A DNA stretch of 64,000 nucleotides from a virus (IMGVR_UViG_3300010213_000001:180701-244700), one strand, 5' to 3'. Shown: positions 12,287 to 59,347, numbered from the stretch's first letter. Translations and numbers: made by a program. Notes: generated by a model from the letters alone, not told the origin.

Positions 12287-12639
12287 TAATTTAATAAGAA
12301 TTTATTTTGGTTCAATGTTTTAGATACAAGTACTTCTTGAGACTCTGGAAATATAGTATAAAATAGTTTGTCTTTGACACAAACTAGAGTGCCCTCTACA
12401 ATTATATTTTCTGAGACAAGAATAAATAAGTCGTTCTTCTTGGATACTACATCTAATAATGTTGATATACCATCTAATTTTACTATACTATTTTTATTAA
12501 CATATAGTAAAACATATGTGCACTCCTCATTAGATATGCTTTCAATAGCAGTCTTCATATTACTAGTTAAGACTTGCTCATTTGTTTCTATTGCTGATAA
12601 TAGATTATTATACAGAGTTTCTTTCTTGGAATATTTCAT
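12286..12639 (-). CDS. hypothetical protein
   Basis: ORF track; plus-strand ORF 12368..12652 is a shadow. Confidence 0.5.
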   Translation of the reverse strand: MKYSKKETLYNNLLSAIETNEQVLTSNMKTAIESISNEECTYVLLYVNKNSIVKLDGISTLLDVVSKKNDLFILVSENIIVEGTLVCVKDKLFYTIFPESQEVLVSKTLNQNKFLLN

Positions 12640-14014
12640 ATTTTCCTCTTGAATTTTTTATTATGGTTTCTAGATCTTCGTTGTGAATACCTAATATAAA
12701 TCCATGTGTTACAATCTCTGGGGTGTACCTTCTATCGATAGGATCATCTCCATCATTAATTATAACTATTTGACATTTACTTAAATCAGGTTCAAACAAC
12801 TTCTTAATTAATTGAATAGCTTGCTTTAAACAAGATTCAATATTAGTAATTCCTTTTGTAAAAGAGCCAAAGCTTCCTGTCTTTATAAAAGCCAAAGCTT
12901 CATCTCTATTCTCAACTATAATGTGTCTATGTATAGTCTTTTCAAACCAACATATTAATAATCTAGCTTTATTATTAATAACAGCTTCTAATCTATTATA
13001 AACTATGGCTTCAACCCATAACTTCTTCTCAGTTGTGTTCATACTAGAGCTATCATCTATCATTAATAATAGATTCTGCTTATCTTCTGGAATATCTCTA
13101 TTTACTTGTAGTTGATTAGTACATAACTTATATTGGAAGTTAGGTAATACCATAGAGCTAAATGATGCTAGCTTCCCTATTTCTCCAATATGTTCCATCT
13201 GTTGGACTTTTCTAATATTTGGAGACTTAACTACTTTTATATTTCCTCTTGATTTTAGTATAGCCATCTTTTCTAAAAGACGTTTTTGTCTATCTGAAAG
13301 CTTTTGTATATTCTCTTCTGGAGATAGTTTATGATCTCTAAACATGAGATTTTCAATGCTTGATTCACTTCTAAGCATTCCTAATAGCTTCTGTTGTCTA
13401 TTTACAATTACCATAATAGCAGAGACTATACTTGCATCAATTTCTAGATTTTCCTCAGTATCTATAACTATCCCATCTGTTATAAGTTGTCTCTCATCCT
13501 CGAGTCTGATTAATTTCTGATTGATTATATTGATAACTTCGTCATCTTGCTCAGCTTTAATCATAACTCTTAGTTGATTTATAGTTTCGTTAAGTTCTTT
13601 AATCTTCTTCTCATTGTTTATTTTATTTTCTTCTTTTGTCTTATTAGACTTTCTATGTAAGACATCTTTAAATAATGTATAAGCATTTAGTGCTTTATCA
13701 AATGGATTAGATCCAGATATGCAGTTAAAGTTTATACTTAATATTATATCTTGAATGTTTTTATTATACTCATACTCTTCTTGAGTTATAAGACCTTGGT
13801 TTAATAACATAGATAAATCTACTAAACTCTTTTTAACACTAGATCCAAACAGTACATGAGTATAAGCATTACAGAGATCAGCTAGTAGATCAAAGGAATA
13901 ACTATGTTGTTGTTTTGAAGAGATACCATATGTAGTAAGATAATAACTAATTTCTAAGAAAGTAGGCTCTTTAAAGTTTTTATGTGAGACAGTTCTAACT
14001 ATTTTGCTTTCCAT
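12608..14014 (-). CDS. von Willebrand factor A (VWA) domain protein, partner of upstream MoxR-like ATPase
   Basis: C-terminal region LLLMIDDSSSM... carries a MIDAS DxSxS motif followed by a VWA-like hydrophobic pattern. Long coiled-coil N-terminal part. Sits immediately downstream of the MoxR-like gene, the classic MoxR–VWA operon order. Confidence 0.7.
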   Translation of the reverse strand: MESKIVRTVSHKNFKEPTFLEISYYLTTYGISSKQQHSYSFDLLADLCNAYTHVLFGSSVKKSLVDLSMLLNQGLITQEEYEYNKNIQDIILSINFNCISGSNPFDKALNAYTLFKDVLHRKSNKTKEENKINNEKKIKELNETINQLRVMIKAEQDDEVINIINQKLIRLEDERQLITDGIVIDTEENLEIDASIVSAIMVIVNRQQKLLGMLRSESSIENLMFRDHKLSPEENIQKLSDRQKRLLEKMAILKSRGNIKVVKSPNIRKVQQMEHIGEIGKLASFSSMVLPNFQYKLCTNQLQVNRDIPEDKQNLLLMIDDSSSMNTTEKKLWVEAIVYNRLEAVINNKARLLICWFEKTIHRHIIVENRDEALAFIKTGSFGSFTKGITNIESCLKQAIQLIKKLFEPDLSKCQIVIINDGDDPIDRRYTPEIVTHGFILGIHNEDLETIIKNSRGKYEIFQERNSV

Positions 14015-15030
14015 TTATCAAATATTTTCCTTAAGTGAGAAAATCTAGGTTCTCCGCACGCTAATAGTTTATCATATATTTTAGACTCTGCTTTAGATTC
14101 GGAGACTACTAATATATAGTAACCCCATACAGTTGACATAGTACTTGTTAGAATATTAGTAGTATCAGCTAGTAACTTAGCATTTGTAGTAGTAGCTTTG
14201 TATACACTAACAACTTCAAACATATCATTTAGATCTCGTAAGTAACTTTCGATTATTGGAGCTATACTTGGATCATCTATCTTTTTAAGCTGCATAAAAT
14301 CAAGCATATTCTTGCAATCTAAGATCATATCATTAAGTTGTATAGATATCTTTATGTTTTCTATTTCTGTATTAAATCTATCTACTGCAACAGAATACAT
14401 GTAATCAAGATAATCTGTACCGTTCAAGAATTCAAATCCTCCATTCTTAATTGCTGACATATATGTTTTATACGCCATCCTAGGAGGAATTATGTACTTA
14501 GGTCTACCAGGAGCAGGTTCTAAAGAAGCTCTAGAACATATAAAAGATACAGTATTTATATATGCTTCTCTTACCAGCATTTTACTATCTTCCTCATAAG
14601 AAGGAGCCTCTAAACTTAAAGCAGTATGATAATCCTTAAATGTATATGTGTTCCAGCTTATAAGTTGTTGGTAGTAGAATCTTTGCATTAAAGCTTCTAT
14701 ACTATCATCTGTAACTACTTCATGTCTTGATCTGTTTGTACAAGCTACAATCATTCTAGTTTTGAGAGGATGTACTTGATTACCATTCCTAACAATCTTA
14801 GATTGAAGCATATCCTTTAAGATGAGAATAATGTTAGGTACAGCATCCAATATTTCTTCTATGATTACAAATTCATGCTCTACAAATGCATTTGTTAATA
14901 AATATTCTAAGACTCCAGAATCTTGGAATTTCTTGATGTCAATACCTCCAAGTAACTTTTCTTCTGTTAGACCATGCCCAAATGTTATAACAAATGGTGG
15001 AGTTTTAATCTTCCCCGTTTCATATAGGTA
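13999..15030 (-). CDS. MoxR-family AAA+ ATPase, 3' exon (Walker B and sensor 1 region)
   Basis: Track ORF 13999..14850 starts at a TTG. The same frame stays open upstream to about 15060. Extended translation ...YLYETGKIKTPPFVITFGHGLTEEKLLGGIDIKKFQDSGVLEYLLTNAFVEHEFVIIEEILDAVPNIILILKDMLQSKIVRNGNQVHPLKTRMIVACTNRSRHE matches the MoxR pattern: 'IQFTPDLLPSDitG' segment, Walker B hhhhDE + NRA-like, and sensor 1 (ATQNP-like 'ACTNR'). Exon boundary is approximate (±30 nt). Confidence 0.6.
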   Translation of the reverse strand, partial: YLYETGKIKTPPFVITFGHGLTEEKLLGGIDIKKFQDSGVLEYLLTNAFVEHEFVIIEEILDAVPNIILILKDMLQSKIVRNGNQVHPLKTRMIVACTNRSRHEVVTDDSIEALMQRFYYQQLISWNTYTFKDYHTALSLEAPSYEEDSKMLVREAYINTVSFICSRASLEPAPGRPKYIIPPRMAYKTYMSAIKNGGFEFLNGTDYLDYMYSVAVDRFNTEIENIKISIQLNDMILDCKNMLDFMQLKKIDDPSIAPIIESYLRDLNDMFEVVSVYKATTTNAKLLADTTNILTSTMSTVWGYYILVVSESKAESKIYDKLLACGEPRFSHLRKIFDKWKAK

Positions 15031-16024
15031 CTGACCAAACAGCCAAGCAGCGTGGCTTTTCTATTGTTATTATCCCTAGGCTTTTTATCCTAGGCTCTAG
15101 AGGTTTCCCTCATTTGCATCGGTTGGTCAATTCCAACCTAGTATAGCATATATTTTCACCCGCAATACATAATTACATTATGTTTGTTAGGGTGGCGGAC
15201 ACTCGTGGCGGTTTATATTCTTATTTCTAAGTTTCACCCACTATGCGTTACACTAGATAAGAACTTTTAAATTCTTACCTTAGCACGGTACTAGCATACA
15301 TCACTGTTTAGCCTCTACCGTTTTTGCCCACTCATTATCTATAGCATTACTACTATAGACGGCGTATTCTATCTTGTATAATCATGCATCTTTTCAACTT
15401 TTACTGTATTGTACTGGTATTTACTTTTTAAGAATTTCTTCTTTTTAGGTAATGTATTAGTTGAGTTAAGACCTTTTATGTGTTTTTTAATAGTAGTTCT
15501 ATAAACGCCTAATTTATCTACAACTTCTTGTATAGAAATAAATTCATCGTAAAACGTACCATCTCTCTTATAGACGTATATTGTCTTACCTGACGGCTTC
15601 TTTATAGTTCCGTTCTTATATCCTCTCTTTAAAGATTCAGATATTTTTATTTTATCTTCCTCTCTAAATGTTCTTAGAGAGCCTGGACCTTTGTCATAAA
15701 AGTTTGTTAATCTATGTTCGTATTTTTTTATAAGATTTTGTTCTAAAATATACGACTCATTCCAACCTTCTACTTCTGTTAGCTTTCTAACTAATGGTTT
15801 ACAATTTATCTTCAGCAAACTAAGAATCCAATCTCTTTTATGAGTTTTTTCTTTGCCATACTTTGCTCTATGGATATGTTGCGACAACCTAGCTTTAATG
15901 CTAACTTTAGTTCTACCAATATACCGTACTCTACATGTAATTGGGTCTATTAATGCATATATAGTTACTTTCATCCTGTAAACATACAGAATATTCTAGT
16001 AACCTACAAGTTTATAAGAATTTA
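15031..16024 (-). mobile_element. HEG-containing intervening sequence in MoxR-like gene (probable intron, class unresolved)
   Basis: About 1 kb separates the P-loop exon from the rest of the MoxR gene. It contains a GIY-YIG ORF in the same orientation, then a 335-nt ORF-free, GC-richer, hairpin-dense segment (15035..15368) with a P-element-like AAUUGCGGG motif (minus-strand reading of 15153..15166). Canonical R/S elements were not found by eye. Confidence 0.45.
15369..15974 (-). CDS. GIY-YIG homing endonuclease (I-TevI/Seg-like)
   Basis: N-terminus IYALIDPITCRVRYIGRTK...RLSQH is the GIY-YIG motif. Paralogous to the ORF at 31085..32014. Confidence 0.8.
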   Translation of the reverse strand: MKVTIYALIDPITCRVRYIGRTKVSIKARLSQHIHRAKYGKEKTHKRDWILSLLKINCKPLVRKLTEVEGWNESYILEQNLIKKYEHRLTNFYDKGPGSLRTFREEDKIKISESLKRGYKNGTIKKPSGKTIYVYKRDGTFYDEFISIQEVVDKLGVYRTTIKKHIKGLNSTNTLPKKKKFLKSKYQYNTVKVEKMHDYTR

Positions 16025-16237
16025 TTTTCCACCGTAGCCGCCAGGACCGAAGAACATAACATTTTCTTTGGTATTCCACGCATAAGCTAAAGTCTTAGCT
16101 CCACTAAAATTGTGGAGCCTTGAACCTATAACTTGTTGTACTTCAGCTACATCTACCATACTTTCCTTTTCTACAGGATCTACAAGATAGTCCTCTAAGG
16201 ATAAGTTTTTCTTGTTTCTGAAATTTGTAGAAGTCAT
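16025..16237 (-). CDS. MoxR-family AAA+ ATPase, 5' exon (N-terminus and glycine-rich P-loop)
   Basis: ...VAEVQQVIGSRLHNFSGAKTLAYAWNTKENVMFFGPGGYGGK then an in-frame stop. Matches the MoxR N-terminus ('viGq..', 'hvLLeGpPGtGKT'). The P-loop is slightly non-canonical (GPGGYGGK). Exact 5' splice site unresolved. Confidence 0.55.
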
Positions 16238-16239
16238 AA

Positions 16240-17019
16240 CTATTGTAATTTGTATTCTTTTTCCGCTAATAATTTCTCTTCTTCAACTAATATAGAATAT
16301 ACTCTCTGAGCTTCTTTCTTAAGTTGATCAATCTCTAAGTTAGAGTGAAATATAAAATACCAATTATCATCAATAGCTACAATTTCTCCTTTGTGAGAAC
16401 AAATCTCAAATTTACCTATCTGCTCTTCACCGTTCCAAACATTCTTAATTTTTAAATCAATTCTACTTGGACAAAATGCTTCAGCAATTGTTGATCTAAC
16501 AATAAAGGACTTTTGTACACCTTCTTTACTAGATATCTCCTCGTTTTCTATAAAAATTTGTTTAAGCTTTTCATTTACAGTCCCAAACTCTTGCAAAACT
16601 GCATGTTCAAGTTCTTCCTTCAACGAATCCATGATGTCTTTGTATAGCTTGAATTTTCTAGTTTGAAAAGAGTCATTATCTAATACATCTAAAATCTTAT
16701 GATTTGGTGTTACTACTTTTGTACAATTAGAAAATTTTGGACCTTTTCTAGCTACCTTAGGTTTTTCCTCAGCTTGCTTTGCCATTCTTGCAAGTAGCTC
16801 TCCAAGATTGTTTAATGAAGGTTCCTCATCTTGCTCATTAGTATCCCAATTTGGATCATTAGCAAAGTCACGAACTTGCCCGTATAAAAAGGCTGACTTA
16901 GGAACGCCTATCCCCACTTCAAATTTGGAATCTCCTTTGTTTGTTTCTAAGATATACATAGACCAACCATTTTCCAATTGATCTAGAGCAACTATATTTG
17001 TGTTATCTACTAACCTCAT
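16240..17019 (-). CDS. hypothetical protein
   Basis: ORF track; ends 2 nt before the MoxR start. Confidence 0.5.
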   Translation of the reverse strand: MRLVDNTNIVALDQLENGWSMYILETNKGDSKFEVGIGVPKSAFLYGQVRDFANDPNWDTNEQDEEPSLNNLGELLARMAKQAEEKPKVARKGPKFSNCTKVVTPNHKILDVLDNDSFQTRKFKLYKDIMDSLKEELEHAVLQEFGTVNEKLKQIFIENEEISSKEGVQKSFIVRSTIAEAFCPSRIDLKIKNVWNGEEQIGKFEICSHKGEIVAIDDNWYFIFHSNLEIDQLKKEAQRVYSILVEEEKLLAEKEYKLQ

Positions 17020-46412: not shown

Positions 46413-46444
46413 AGAGATAGTTATTTAGAGTGAATGAAAATCAG

Positions 46445-46512
46445 TTCTTTCATCAGGAATCGAACCTGATATTGGAGTGATAGCTCCCGTGTTACCATTA
46501 CACTATGAAAGA
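46445..46512 (-). tRNA. tRNA-like gene with truncated anticodon arm (possible pseudo-tRNA)
   Basis: Minus reading: UCUUUCA-UA-GUGU-AAUGGUA-ACAC-G-GGAG-CUAUCA-CUCC-AAUA-UCAGG-UUCGAUU-CCUGA-UGAAAGA-A. Perfect 7-bp acceptor stem, 4-bp D stem and canonical T-arm. The anticodon arm has only 4 bp with a 6-nt loop (67 nt total), so decoding function is doubtful. Confidence 0.45.
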
Positions 46513-51880: not shown

Positions 51881-51994
51881 AGAGTCCAAGGGGAATCGAA
51901 CCCCTGCTTATTCACCTTATATCCTATCTAGAATAGGAAGGTTCTCTTTCTCCTGGGATTTGGAGCGTGCTACCACTACACTATAGACTCTTAC
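51881..51994 (-). ncRNA. tRNA-like element with ~45-nt insertion and non-canonical anticodon arm
   Basis: Minus reading: acceptor GAGUCUA…UGGACUC (6 WC pairs plus 1 G•U), D-arm GUG-UAGUGGUAG-CAC, T-arm AGGGG-UUCGAUU-CCCCU. Between them lie a 4-bp stem with 8-nt loop (CUCC-AAAUCCCA-GGAG) and an extra hairpin UCCUAU-UCUAG-AUAGGA. Total about 113 nt. Confidence 0.4.
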
Positions 51995-58834: not shown

Positions 58835-59251
58835 TTATATTATATGCAAGCCAATTACCTGTTCAACAACTGGCTTTATCTTATTCCAATCTACACTTAG
58901 TTCTACTGGTTTGTAGATTGAAACTTGATCTATAAATAATATACCAGAGTCTCCTTGCTTTACAGCATCCTGTAGAACTATCTTTTGTCTACTAGAATTA
59001 TAAGTGATTATTATTGAAAACTCTTGCGCAACTTCAGATTGTAAAATCTTGAAGTTAAGAATTGTTTCTGTCTCTGTCTCAACTCTATCTATCAAAGATA
59101 AGGTGGATTTGCTGTCTCTCCAATTCTGAGCTGTAGCAAATGAAACAATAAATAATAAGACTAAAGTTAAAATGGTATTTTTCATATAAATTAAATTAGA
59201 TAGTAAGTAATGATTTAGTTGGGAAGAGAGGATTCGAACCTCCAATTTCAC
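58835..59251 (-). CDS. hypothetical secreted protein
   Basis: Signal peptide …MKNTILTLVLLFIVSFATAQ. Confidence 0.5.
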   Translation of the reverse strand: MKLEVRILSSQLNHYLLSNLIYMKNTILTLVLLFIVSFATAQNWRDSKSTLSLIDRVETETETILNFKILQSEVAQEFSIIITYNSSRQKIVLQDAVKQGDSGILFIDQVSIYKPVELSVDWNKIKPVVEQVIGLHII

Positions 59252-59338
59252 TGCGCTTTCGTCCTAATTTAATAAGAATTTGCTTATAGCTACAGACCCT
59301 CCTTAACAAGGGCGGTTCTACCAATTCACCTACTCCCC
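59219..59338 (-). ncRNA. tRNA-like element with ~50-nt insertion (non-canonical)
   Basis: Minus reading: tRNA-like D region GGU-GAAUUGGUAGA-ACC, stem GCCCU with 8-nt loop UGUUAAGG, then about a 53-nt insert sharing the 12-mer CUGUAGCUAUAA and CGAAAGCG with the P9 region of the AAA intron 2. Then T-arm GGAGG-UUCGAAU-CCUCU. Acceptor pairing is imperfect. Confidence 0.3.
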
Positions 59339-59347
59339 CATATTACA

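Follow-up and report, generated by a model that had tools for sequence, protein, structure and literature searches.

The 64,000-nucleotide (nt) stretch of viral DNA analyzed here (IMGVR_UViG_3300010213_000001:180701-244700; hereafter, the window) contains a MoxR-type AAA+ ATPase gene that lies in two pieces. An open reading frame (ORF) scan placed all ORFs around the split gene on the minus strand. In transcription order, the region comprises a 259-amino-acid (aa) ORF, a 71-aa ORF that includes the first piece of the ATPase gene (exon 1), a 201-aa ORF for a GIY-YIG homing endonuclease, ∼310 nt without an ORF, the frame of the second piece (exon 2), and a 468-aa ORF for a VWA protein, which overlaps the ATPase stop codon by 16 nt. 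We consider it highly probable that this locus represents a two-gene MoxR-type AAA+ ATPase/VWA operon of a large uncultured phage and that the ATPase gene has been invaded by a mobile group I intron between the G and K codons of its Walker A motif.

A protein search with exon 2 returned 19 clusters, most of which are uninterrupted proteins of ∼375 to 428 aa with the shared pattern ...AWAWNSxENxIxFGPGGYGKSDAAxLF.... Exon 1 can be aligned to the N termini of these homologues as far as GPGGYG, and the two are colinear; the first piece therefore belongs to the ATPase rather than to an unrelated protein, in keeping with an earlier note on this DNA. Directly behind an in-frame UAG, the exon 2 frame opens with KSHAAWLFGQYL, which aligns to KSDAAILFHEYL of the homologues. 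Joining position 16031 to position 15060 gives a 422-aa protein that is colinear, without a gap at the junction, with 14 uninterrupted homologues, which read FGPGGYGKSDAA at this point. G64, G66, G67, G69, K70, and S71 are invariant among the spliced protein and these 14 sequences. The junction splits the Walker A motif between its G and K codons, and the spliced motif (GPGGYGKS) matches the canonical GxxGxGKS. The spliced protein also scores higher than exon 2 alone against Pfam bpMoxR (41.7 versus 34.8 bits; cutoff, 27); both match Pfam AAA_5, the spliced protein from profile position 1 (32.6 bits; cutoff, 22). These results agree with the MoxR class proposed in the earlier note.

The 71-aa ORF (16022-16237, minus strand) ends in FFGPGGYGGK before its stop codon. 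Because the GGK tail is a read-through of two intron codons followed by UAA, the P-loop of the spliced protein is canonical. The earlier note had taken exon 1 to end after GGK and the P-loop to be the noncanonical GPGGYGGK; the 14-homologue alignment instead places the boundary two codons upstream, at GPGGYG^KS (^, splice junction). A junction yielding GPGGYGGKS was rejected, as it would disrupt a Walker A spacing shared without exception by the homologues and would lack a splice-site U. At the corresponding position, intron-less allele L129 reads GGCTACGGT^AAATCT (intron-less site sequence, TTCGGTCCTGGTGGCTACGGTAAATCTGACGCT) and intron-less allele L130 reads GGATTTGGT^AAATCA, while the window exons read GGCTACGGT^AAAAGC. 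The splice-site context is GGU^GGAAAA...CAAUAG^AAAAGC, with a U before the 5′ site and a terminal G at 15061. Taken together, the exon boundaries and the U/G splice-site nucleotides, a combination the earlier note had reported missing, are defined at the sequence level.

The window has AGC as its Walker A serine codon (15055-15060 region); intron-less alleles and the remaining intron-containing ones have TCT or TCA. The difference may reflect chance or a substitution that shields the site from endonuclease cleavage.

The reading frames also bear on a different explanation, in which insertion of the endonuclease gene leaves the ATPase as two polypeptides, translated separately and then reassembled. 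The nrdA gene of phage Aeh1, which is split by mobE, provides a precedent; split genes separated by endonucleases occur in phages, and exon 1 does form a self-contained ORF, from start codon to stop codon. However, exon 2 lacks an in-frame start codon for 70 codons past the junction, the earliest candidate being a TTG at 14850, beyond Walker B, and homology to intact proteins already starts at the first codon after the in-frame UAG. Separate translation would also leave a conserved ribozyme fold of ∼300 nt without a role. We regard this explanation as very improbable.

The ∼310 nt after the endonuclease ORF, correctly described in the earlier note as rich in hairpins, fold far better than shuffled sequence (z = −5.1). 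Sensitive blastn with the 340 nt after this ORF matched intervening sequences in split genes of other phages, and five introns (the window copy plus four from other phages) were aligned at 70% column identity (alignment A2). Because the copies in phages AR9 and BpSp carry no ORF, the whole ribozyme can be aligned. RNAalifold recovered P2, P3, P4, P5, P6a, P8, P9a, P9b, and P9.1 from this alignment, and our structural model adds P6, P7 (crossing P3), P7.2, and P9. Across the five sequences, 94.9% of cells are paired in the full model, compared with 32 to 46% with slid partners, and 32 of the 67 pairs are compensatory (0/500 shuffles as good). On a 22-sequence alignment from P7 to P7′, P7 is 100% paired and includes a switch from A-U to G-C, with compensatory pairs also found in P7.1 (4/5), P7.2 (3/4), and P8 (6/6). 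P7, the most telling of the helices for group I membership, reads GCAUA/UAUGC in most members and GCGUA/UACGC in loci L132, L002, and L008, which were not chosen by their P7 sequence.

A 95-position covariance model of the P7-to-P7′ region (R1), built from the 22-sequence alignment and run unfiltered on the whole window, found the intron at 79 bits. It also matched, over the full length of the model, the two other group I introns of the window, which Rfam certifies (E values of 0.006 and 0.044); in the alignment to the first of these, P7 (GACUA), P7.1, the CCACGA joiner, P8, and J8/7 (AAGAUAUAGUC) correspond. A leave-one-out profile made only from the four other-phage introns matched window positions 15065-15364 with an E value of 2.7e-39, and the match of the window intron is thus beyond chance. 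The predicted group I core from P2 to P9, including the P3/P7 pseudoknot and P7.1/P7.2, is complete and supported by covariation, and the P7 G-C pair is presumed to form the guanosine-binding site. An insertion of P7.1/P7.2 between P7 and P3′ is reportedly how Michel and Westhof defined subgroup IA in 1990. Judged by its sequence and modeled fold, the element is a divergent phage IA-type group I intron and is predicted to be self-splicing.

The earlier note had left open a divergent group I intron or another class of insertion; the structural model and its covariation uphold the first option and speak against the second. It had also seen no clean R and S elements, whereas an R-like element (UAACGCAUAG) and an S-like element (AAAAUAUAUGCUA) are present. 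Its P-like AAUUGCGGG actually reads UAUUGCGGGUG and, as part of the P8 3′ strand, was rejected as P4.

The last bases of exon 1, ACGGU, form the 5′ strand of P1 and pair with an internal guide sequence located 667 nt downstream of the 5′ splice site, with G15363 opposite U16031 as a G.U wobble at the splice site. GCCG(U) is kept in 5/5 seed introns and in 14/15 of the full-length members listed. Since the guide sequence lies 3′ of the endonuclease ORF, the ORF occupies the P1 loop, which two flanking helices would close (Table 1). In minimum-energy folds, a mini-construct of locus L134 shows both equivalent P1-extension pairings, while the window construct shows CUUGUA/UACAAG only. An alternative P1 with CUUGUAG just past the 5′ splice site was rejected, as it sets a C opposite the splice-site U; GCCGU beside P2 fits all relatives.

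Table 1. Features of the split ATPase locus, its predicted intron, and the other group I introns of the window
Feature	Position	Strand	Basis
Upstream 259-aa ORF	16240-17019	-	ORF scan
Exon 1 of the MoxR-type ATPase gene, 69 codons, ending ...FFGPGGYG	16031..16237	-	ORF scan; colinear with homologue N termini
Group I intron (predicted), 970 nt, GGAAAAUAA... to ...AACAAUAG	15061..16030	-	Protein alignment; intron-less alleles; RNA family and structure
In-frame UAA two codons inside the intron	16022..16024	-	Same arrangement in L132 (AGC UAA) and L134 (AGA UAA)
P1 extension, 5′ strands AUUCU and CUUGUA	16005..16021	-	Complementary to AGAAU and UACAAG at 15366-15378
GIY-YIG homing endonuclease ORF, 201 aa, in P1 loop	15369-15974	-	Pfam GIY-YIG, NUMOD1, TIGR01453
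P1 extension, 3′ strands UACAAG and AGAAU, overlapping the endonuclease stop codon	15366..15378	-	Complementarity; mini-construct folds
Internal guide sequence GCCGU, pairing with exon ACGGU	15359..15363	-	Family conservation
P2 hairpin CUAUAG/CUAUAG, conserved GUAA in 8-nt loop	15339..15358	-	7/8 pairs compensatory
P3 5′ strand GUGGGC, J3/4, P4 (CGGUA/UACCG), P5/P5a, P6/P6a	15253..15331	-	RNAalifold and pair counts
P7 5′ strand GCAUA in R-like element UAACGCAUAG	15242..15246	-	100% paired with UAUGC; covariation
P7.1/P7.2 insertion (GUGG..CCGC around CUUA-GAAA-UAAG)	15208..15241	-	Covariation
Conserved CACGAG joiner and P3 3′ strand GUCCGC; P3 crosses P7 (pseudoknot)	15195..15207	-	Family alignments
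P8 hairpin CACCC...GGGUG, including AAUUGCGGG	15157..15194	-	6/6 pairs compensatory
J8/7 AAAAUA and P7 3′ strand UAUGC (S-like element)	15146..15156	-	Alignment; covariance model
P9 three-way junction (CUA/UAG closing GGUUGG/CCAACC and GAGG-GAAA-CCUC) and P9.1 CCUAGG/CCUAGG	15075..15141	-	88% identity to AR9/PBS1; covariation
3′ tail GAUAAUAACAAUAG, terminal omega G at 15061	15061..15074	-	Same terminal G in relatives
Exon 2 of the MoxR-type ATPase gene, 353 codons, starting KSHAAWLFGQ...	13999..15060	-	Open frame; homologue alignment
VWA partner gene, 468 aa, MIDAS D320-x-S322-x-S324, T390, D421	12608..14014	-	ORF scan; homologue alignment; profile
Rfam group I introns of the window	30389-30630 and 30829-31116	-	Rfam

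Several observations weigh against a functional group I intron at this site. Rfam RF00028 gave no match to the intron even at E values of ≤10 (1.3-kb region; the whole window was also scanned), none to the ORF-less AR9 intron, none in the AR9, Clostridium, and phiR1-37 loci, and none at the family loci (0/18). With RF00028 silent, group I membership rests on our structural model and the cross-matching rather than on a curated model. The P1 helix has only 5 bp, a P10 pairing with exon 2 is not evident, and the endonuclease start codon has poor Shine-Dalgarno spacing (AGGAUG). In addition, J2/3 (UUAUUA) is by eye complementary to the 3′ tail (UAAUAA) before the terminal G in AR9, BpSp, phiR1-37, L132, L068, and L039 (A2 columns 30-36 and 348-354), and this pairing is broken in the window copy (15332-15338/15067-15073) and in L134. 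The complementarity may be a tertiary helix or an AU-rich coincidence.

The loss of a pairing kept by most relatives, together with the lack of an Rfam match, would fit a decayed, nonsplicing relic, the ATPase gene being an inactivated pseudogene that carries a selfish endonuclease. Yet the window copy retains all core helices from P1 to P9.1 in intact form, the two flanking exons contain neither stops nor frameshifts and preserve each residue that is invariant in the family, and the VWA partner is intact as well. L134 has the same tail variant, yet its exons are intact. A relic therefore appears improbable to us.

We also weighed an intervening sequence of another class, namely a group II intron, an intein, or a translational bypass element. 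In-frame stops on both sides make an intein impossible, and the length of 970 nt far exceeds the 50-nt bypass of T4 gene 60. Rfam group II models gave no match, at gathering or permissive thresholds, in the window, in the 1.3-kb region, or in the AR9, Clostridium, phiR1-37, and family loci; the group I and group II scans for which the earlier note had called thus matched the insert in neither class. The insert has neither GUGYG...AY ends nor a domain V or VI, and its helix order with a P3/P7 pseudoknot is specific to group I. In favor of another class are the silence of the Rfam group I model and the existence of group II introns with homing endonucleases in AR9-like phages (PMC12350094). On balance, this alternative is exceedingly unlikely, and a mobile group I intron remains our preferred reading.

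The endonuclease itself is a marginal match to its family: the N-terminal 99 aa score 23.0 bits against Pfam GIY-YIG (cutoff, 22.6; E value, 1e-4), and a full-length scan did not list the domain. The motifs IYAL...RYIGRT...R..H...E...N are nonetheless discernible. At the C terminus, NUMOD1 scores 21.8 bits, just under its cutoff, helix-turn-helix-like matches likewise fall just short of theirs, and the protein weakly matches TIGR01453 "group I intron endonuclease." A PDB sequence search with the endonuclease gave nothing useful. These matches and the 970-nt length bear out the ∼1-kb insert in the P-loop codons, with a GIY-YIG ORF, that the earlier note described.

Evidence for mobility comes from other ATPase genes. 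Two shorter MoxR homologues proved to be exon 2 of interrupted genes with an intron at the identical codon (L132/L133 and L134). L132 (3554-6023) and L133 are Logan SRR13799155 and SRR13799154. In this pair, exon 1 ends LYGPGGYG^S before a stop, exon 2 starts KSEAAVMFHE, and the intron belongs to the same RNA family (nhmmer E value, 9e-40); its P1-loop ORF encodes a LAGLIDADG endonuclease and overlaps the P2/P3 region by ∼50 nt. Exon 1 of L134 ends LYGRGGHG^R before a stop, exon 2 starts KSEMAIEFF, both exons are intact, and the intron ORF is a GIY-YIG endonuclease 63% identical to that of the window. The intron is thus polymorphic for presence or absence at one codon position across the ATPase homologues, and its occurrence at the identical codon in at least three lineages, with many lineages lacking it, is the pattern expected of homing. 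Intron cores are ∼76 to 85% identical in all pairs, a range that is uninformative, relative to exon identity, about recent transfer. We infer that the endonuclease homes into intron-less alleles. With two endonuclease families, one ribozyme, and one codon, these loci offer a tidy natural system for homing and cargo exchange.

Intervening sequences related to the intron occur in a range of phage genes. The matches include the topoisomerase II/gyrase A gene of AR9/PBS1 (coding sequence annotated as a three-piece join in RefSeq), gyrase A of BpSp (split gene), topoisomerase II of phiR1-37 (gp327/endonuclease gp328/gp329), and the large terminase gene of a Clostridium phage and the major tail protein gene of a Staphylococcus phage (both split). 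In a crAss-like phage, blastn matched the gap lying upstream of a DNA helicase gene, and in a Caldibacillus phage it matched a region of tape-measure repeats. Where protein homology fixes their junction, the introns always follow a GGU glycine codon, as at ...IIG^EYHPHG and ...AHG^NFGS in AR9, ...VVG^EYHPHG in BpSp, and ...TIG^RYHPHG in phiR1-37. When the genes of AR9, BpSp, and phiR1-37 are joined across the corresponding U^ and G^ positions, intact GyrA-like ORFs (GEYHPHG, HGNFGS) result, and a terminal G directly precedes exon 2 in the window, both AR9 introns, BpSp, phiR1-37, L132, and L134. A statement in Korn et al. (10.1101/2020.12.14.422802) describes the AR9 introns as experimentally verified.

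A pattern scan of IMG/VR retrieved at least 120 stretches, and nearly all among the matches listed were confirmed by the sequence profile. In one member, L006 (Staphylococcus phage vB-SscS-F1, 900-2094), the profile matches in two pieces (2-175 and 185-280) around an 888-nt ORF. This cargo ORF lies near P8 and not in the P1 loop, so the cargo position varies within the family. A survey of introns in the Bastillevirinae found the Rfam group I model incomplete and phage intron diversity in excess of current subgroups (PMC11878797). It is conceivable, though we hold it less likely than not, that these introns make up a clade of their own among phage group I introns, large and distinct in structure (GCCGU guide sequence recognizing GGU codons, P7 of GCAUA/UAUGC, and endonuclease cargo in the P1 loop or elsewhere) that is wholly missed by current Rfam (0/18 loci) and within which GIY-YIG and LAGLIDADG endonucleases are exchanged inside one intron. 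If so, Rfam-based intron surveys would systematically undercount the clade, and the association of one ribozyme and one insertion site with two unrelated enzymes, GIY-YIG and LAGLIDADG, would provide a clear example from nature of endonuclease exchange.

The family is common in phage metagenomes and, in all scans made here, invisible to the Rfam group I model, and pipelines that depend on this model will probably mis-call many phage genes. At the window locus, gene callers yield a 71-aa stub and a 270- to 283-aa fragment that has neither Walker motif, and relatives P0011 and P0018 are treated likewise; once correctly spliced, the gene encodes a 422-aa enzyme whose ATP-binding loop is normal.

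In the mechanism we propose, ribosomes leaving exon 1 would halt at the UAA two codons into the intron, and the two helices flanking the ORF would bring the guide sequence beside the 5′ splice site. Free guanosine would then attack after U16031, and the terminal G15061 would dock in P7. Joining of the exons as GGU^AAA would restore GPGGYGKS and the 422-aa ATPase, with the spliced junction reading ...GGCUACGGU^AAAAGCCAC.... The endonuclease, for its part, would cut intron-less alleles of coinfecting relatives near the P-loop codons, and repair would copy the intron in.

The ATPase and its partner resemble known MoxR-VWA pairs. The ATPase domain has Walker A, Walker B, sensor 1, and an arginine motif; GPGGYGKS, VIIEE, ACTNRS, and EALMQRF are conserved in the homologue alignment, with the last three, including Walker B (VIIEE), encoded by exon 2. 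The family profile matches RavA, the Escherichia coli MoxR ATPase (E value, 8e-10), although the protein is not a RavA equivalog (34.5 bits versus a cutoff of 681). The VWA protein contains LLLMIDDSSSM and the MIDAS pattern DDSSS...T...D, and six partner homologues all keep D320, S322, S324, T390, and D421. The VWA assignment in the earlier note, which cited the DDSSSM motif, is weak for the single protein and firm at the family level. By itself, the window protein stays under the Pfam cutoff (21.4 versus 27, with weak VWA_2 and VWA_CoxE matches), and a PDB sequence search with it gave nothing useful; in contrast, 5/6 partner homologues match VWA_2 and VWA_CoxE, and the partner profile matches solved VWA domains (E value, 1e-5). 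The partner follows the ATPase directly in L129, L130, L133, and L134. L130 also keeps the wider gene order of the window, dUTPase included; apart from the dUTPase, the flanking ORFs have no PHROG match, and what is shared across relatives is a two-gene core.

The bpMoxR family is that of MoxR-vWA-beta-propeller ternary conflict systems. The gene upstream of the ATPase has no beta-propeller domain in Pfam, and the neighborhood shows no third component, be it a beta-propeller, VMAP, iSTAND, or FtsH, with no structure-based search made. No recognized domain covers the ATPase's C-terminal half or the partner's N-terminal half. Neither tblastn with exon 2 nor megablast with the whole locus found a match in 50,697 phage records, and the ATPase subfamily has only distant relatives among PHROG "ATPase" families.

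From knowledge of the family, the ATPase and VWA proteins most likely act as a RavA/ViaA-like remodeling pair on a phage or host protein, and we infer an ATP-driven remodeling of a target recruited through the VWA metal site. The earlier note had called MoxR-VWA pairs nonstandard for phages. They are indeed known in few viruses, but viral precedents exist: phage 0305phi8-36 has such a pair (orf66/orf63; PMC2147016), and PMC7159879, in a passage citing Scheele et al. 2011, lists, as one of the MoxR-vWA couples that have been studied, an archaeal system for phage-tail assembly. The pair adds a rare, uncharacterized chaperone-like module to the repertoire of large phages.

Elsewhere in the window, a second AAA+ ATPase gene (phrog_10440; 29809-32840, minus strand) lies in three exons split by the two Rfam-detected group I introns. 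A 309-aa GIY-YIG ORF (31085-32014) lies in the first of these introns. One junction interrupts Walker A (LFSGRYG^TGKSLL) directly after a GGT codon, the other interrupts Walker B (ILFLED^IDQVARG), and both introns have their true 3′ ends ∼40 to 70 nt past the ends of the Rfam matches. Two tRNA-like genes (51881-51990 and 59219-59339, minus strand), of 110 and 121 nt, pass the Rfam tRNA threshold (43.3 and 29.4 bits) and are not called by ARAGORN; both have 39 to 47 extra nt after the anticodon arm, which could be very long variable arms or short insertions. ARAGORN predicts a further tRNA at 46444-46512 (minus strand), with an "anticodon" of two bases (at), where Rfam reports none. Across the whole window, GC content is ∼30%, ORFs of ≥150 aa are all on the minus strand, and the genes include tRNA genes, a CCA-adding enzyme, several AAA+ ATPases, and the dUTPase. 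The identical ATPase fragment lies on a JGI contig of 244.7 kb, and the source virus is therefore probably a jumbo phage; tblastn with the 656-aa helicase of the window gave no match at E values of ≤1e-10, which indicates that the phage has no close cultured relative.

Set against known systems, the split-MoxR intron adds another instance of an established type of element and leaves the understanding of introns and MoxR proteins unchanged. The protein pair parallels RavA-ViaA and CoxD/CoxE, in which, as in the window, an AAA_5/MoxR-class ATPase adjoins a VWA protein with an intact MIDAS and is encoded by an adjacent, translationally coupled gene. For the intron, the closest counterparts are the gyrase/topoisomerase introns of AR9/PBS1, BpSp, and phiR1-37, whose cores are ∼79 to 81% identical to that of the window (88% over the 3′ 95 nt for AR9/PBS1). 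They share with it the GCCGU guide sequence, insertion after GGU, P7 (GCAUA/UAUGC), P7.1/P7.2, the P9 three-way junction, and the 3′ tail. As in the window, the phiR1-37 endonuclease ORF lies between the 5′ splice site and the guide sequence, whereas in the AR9 and BpSp copies the ORF is replaced by a stretch of ∼60 nt with stem-forming potential by eye. The host gene differs (a MoxR-type ATPase in place of a topoisomerase), and the window copy has longer P5 and P8 helices and lacks the J2/3-tail complementarity.

The canonical IA introns (T4 td and nrdB, Twort, and SPO1; RF00028; and the two others in the window) have in common with the split-MoxR intron U/G ends, GIY-YIG cargo, the helix order P1-P2-P3-P4-P5-P6-P7-P7.1/7.2-P3′-P8-P7′-P9, and a similar J8/7 (AAGAUAU). 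The window intron at 30389-30630 further shares the CCACGA joiner, the P9.1 hairpin, and the GAUAACAAAUUUG tail with the split-MoxR family. In contrast, P7 is GCAUA/UAUGC in the split-MoxR intron and GACUA/UAGUC in the canonical introns, RF00028 scores the latter and gives the former no score, and canonical phage IA introns carry their endonuclease ORF in P6, P8, or P9, whereas that of the split-MoxR intron occupies the P1 loop.

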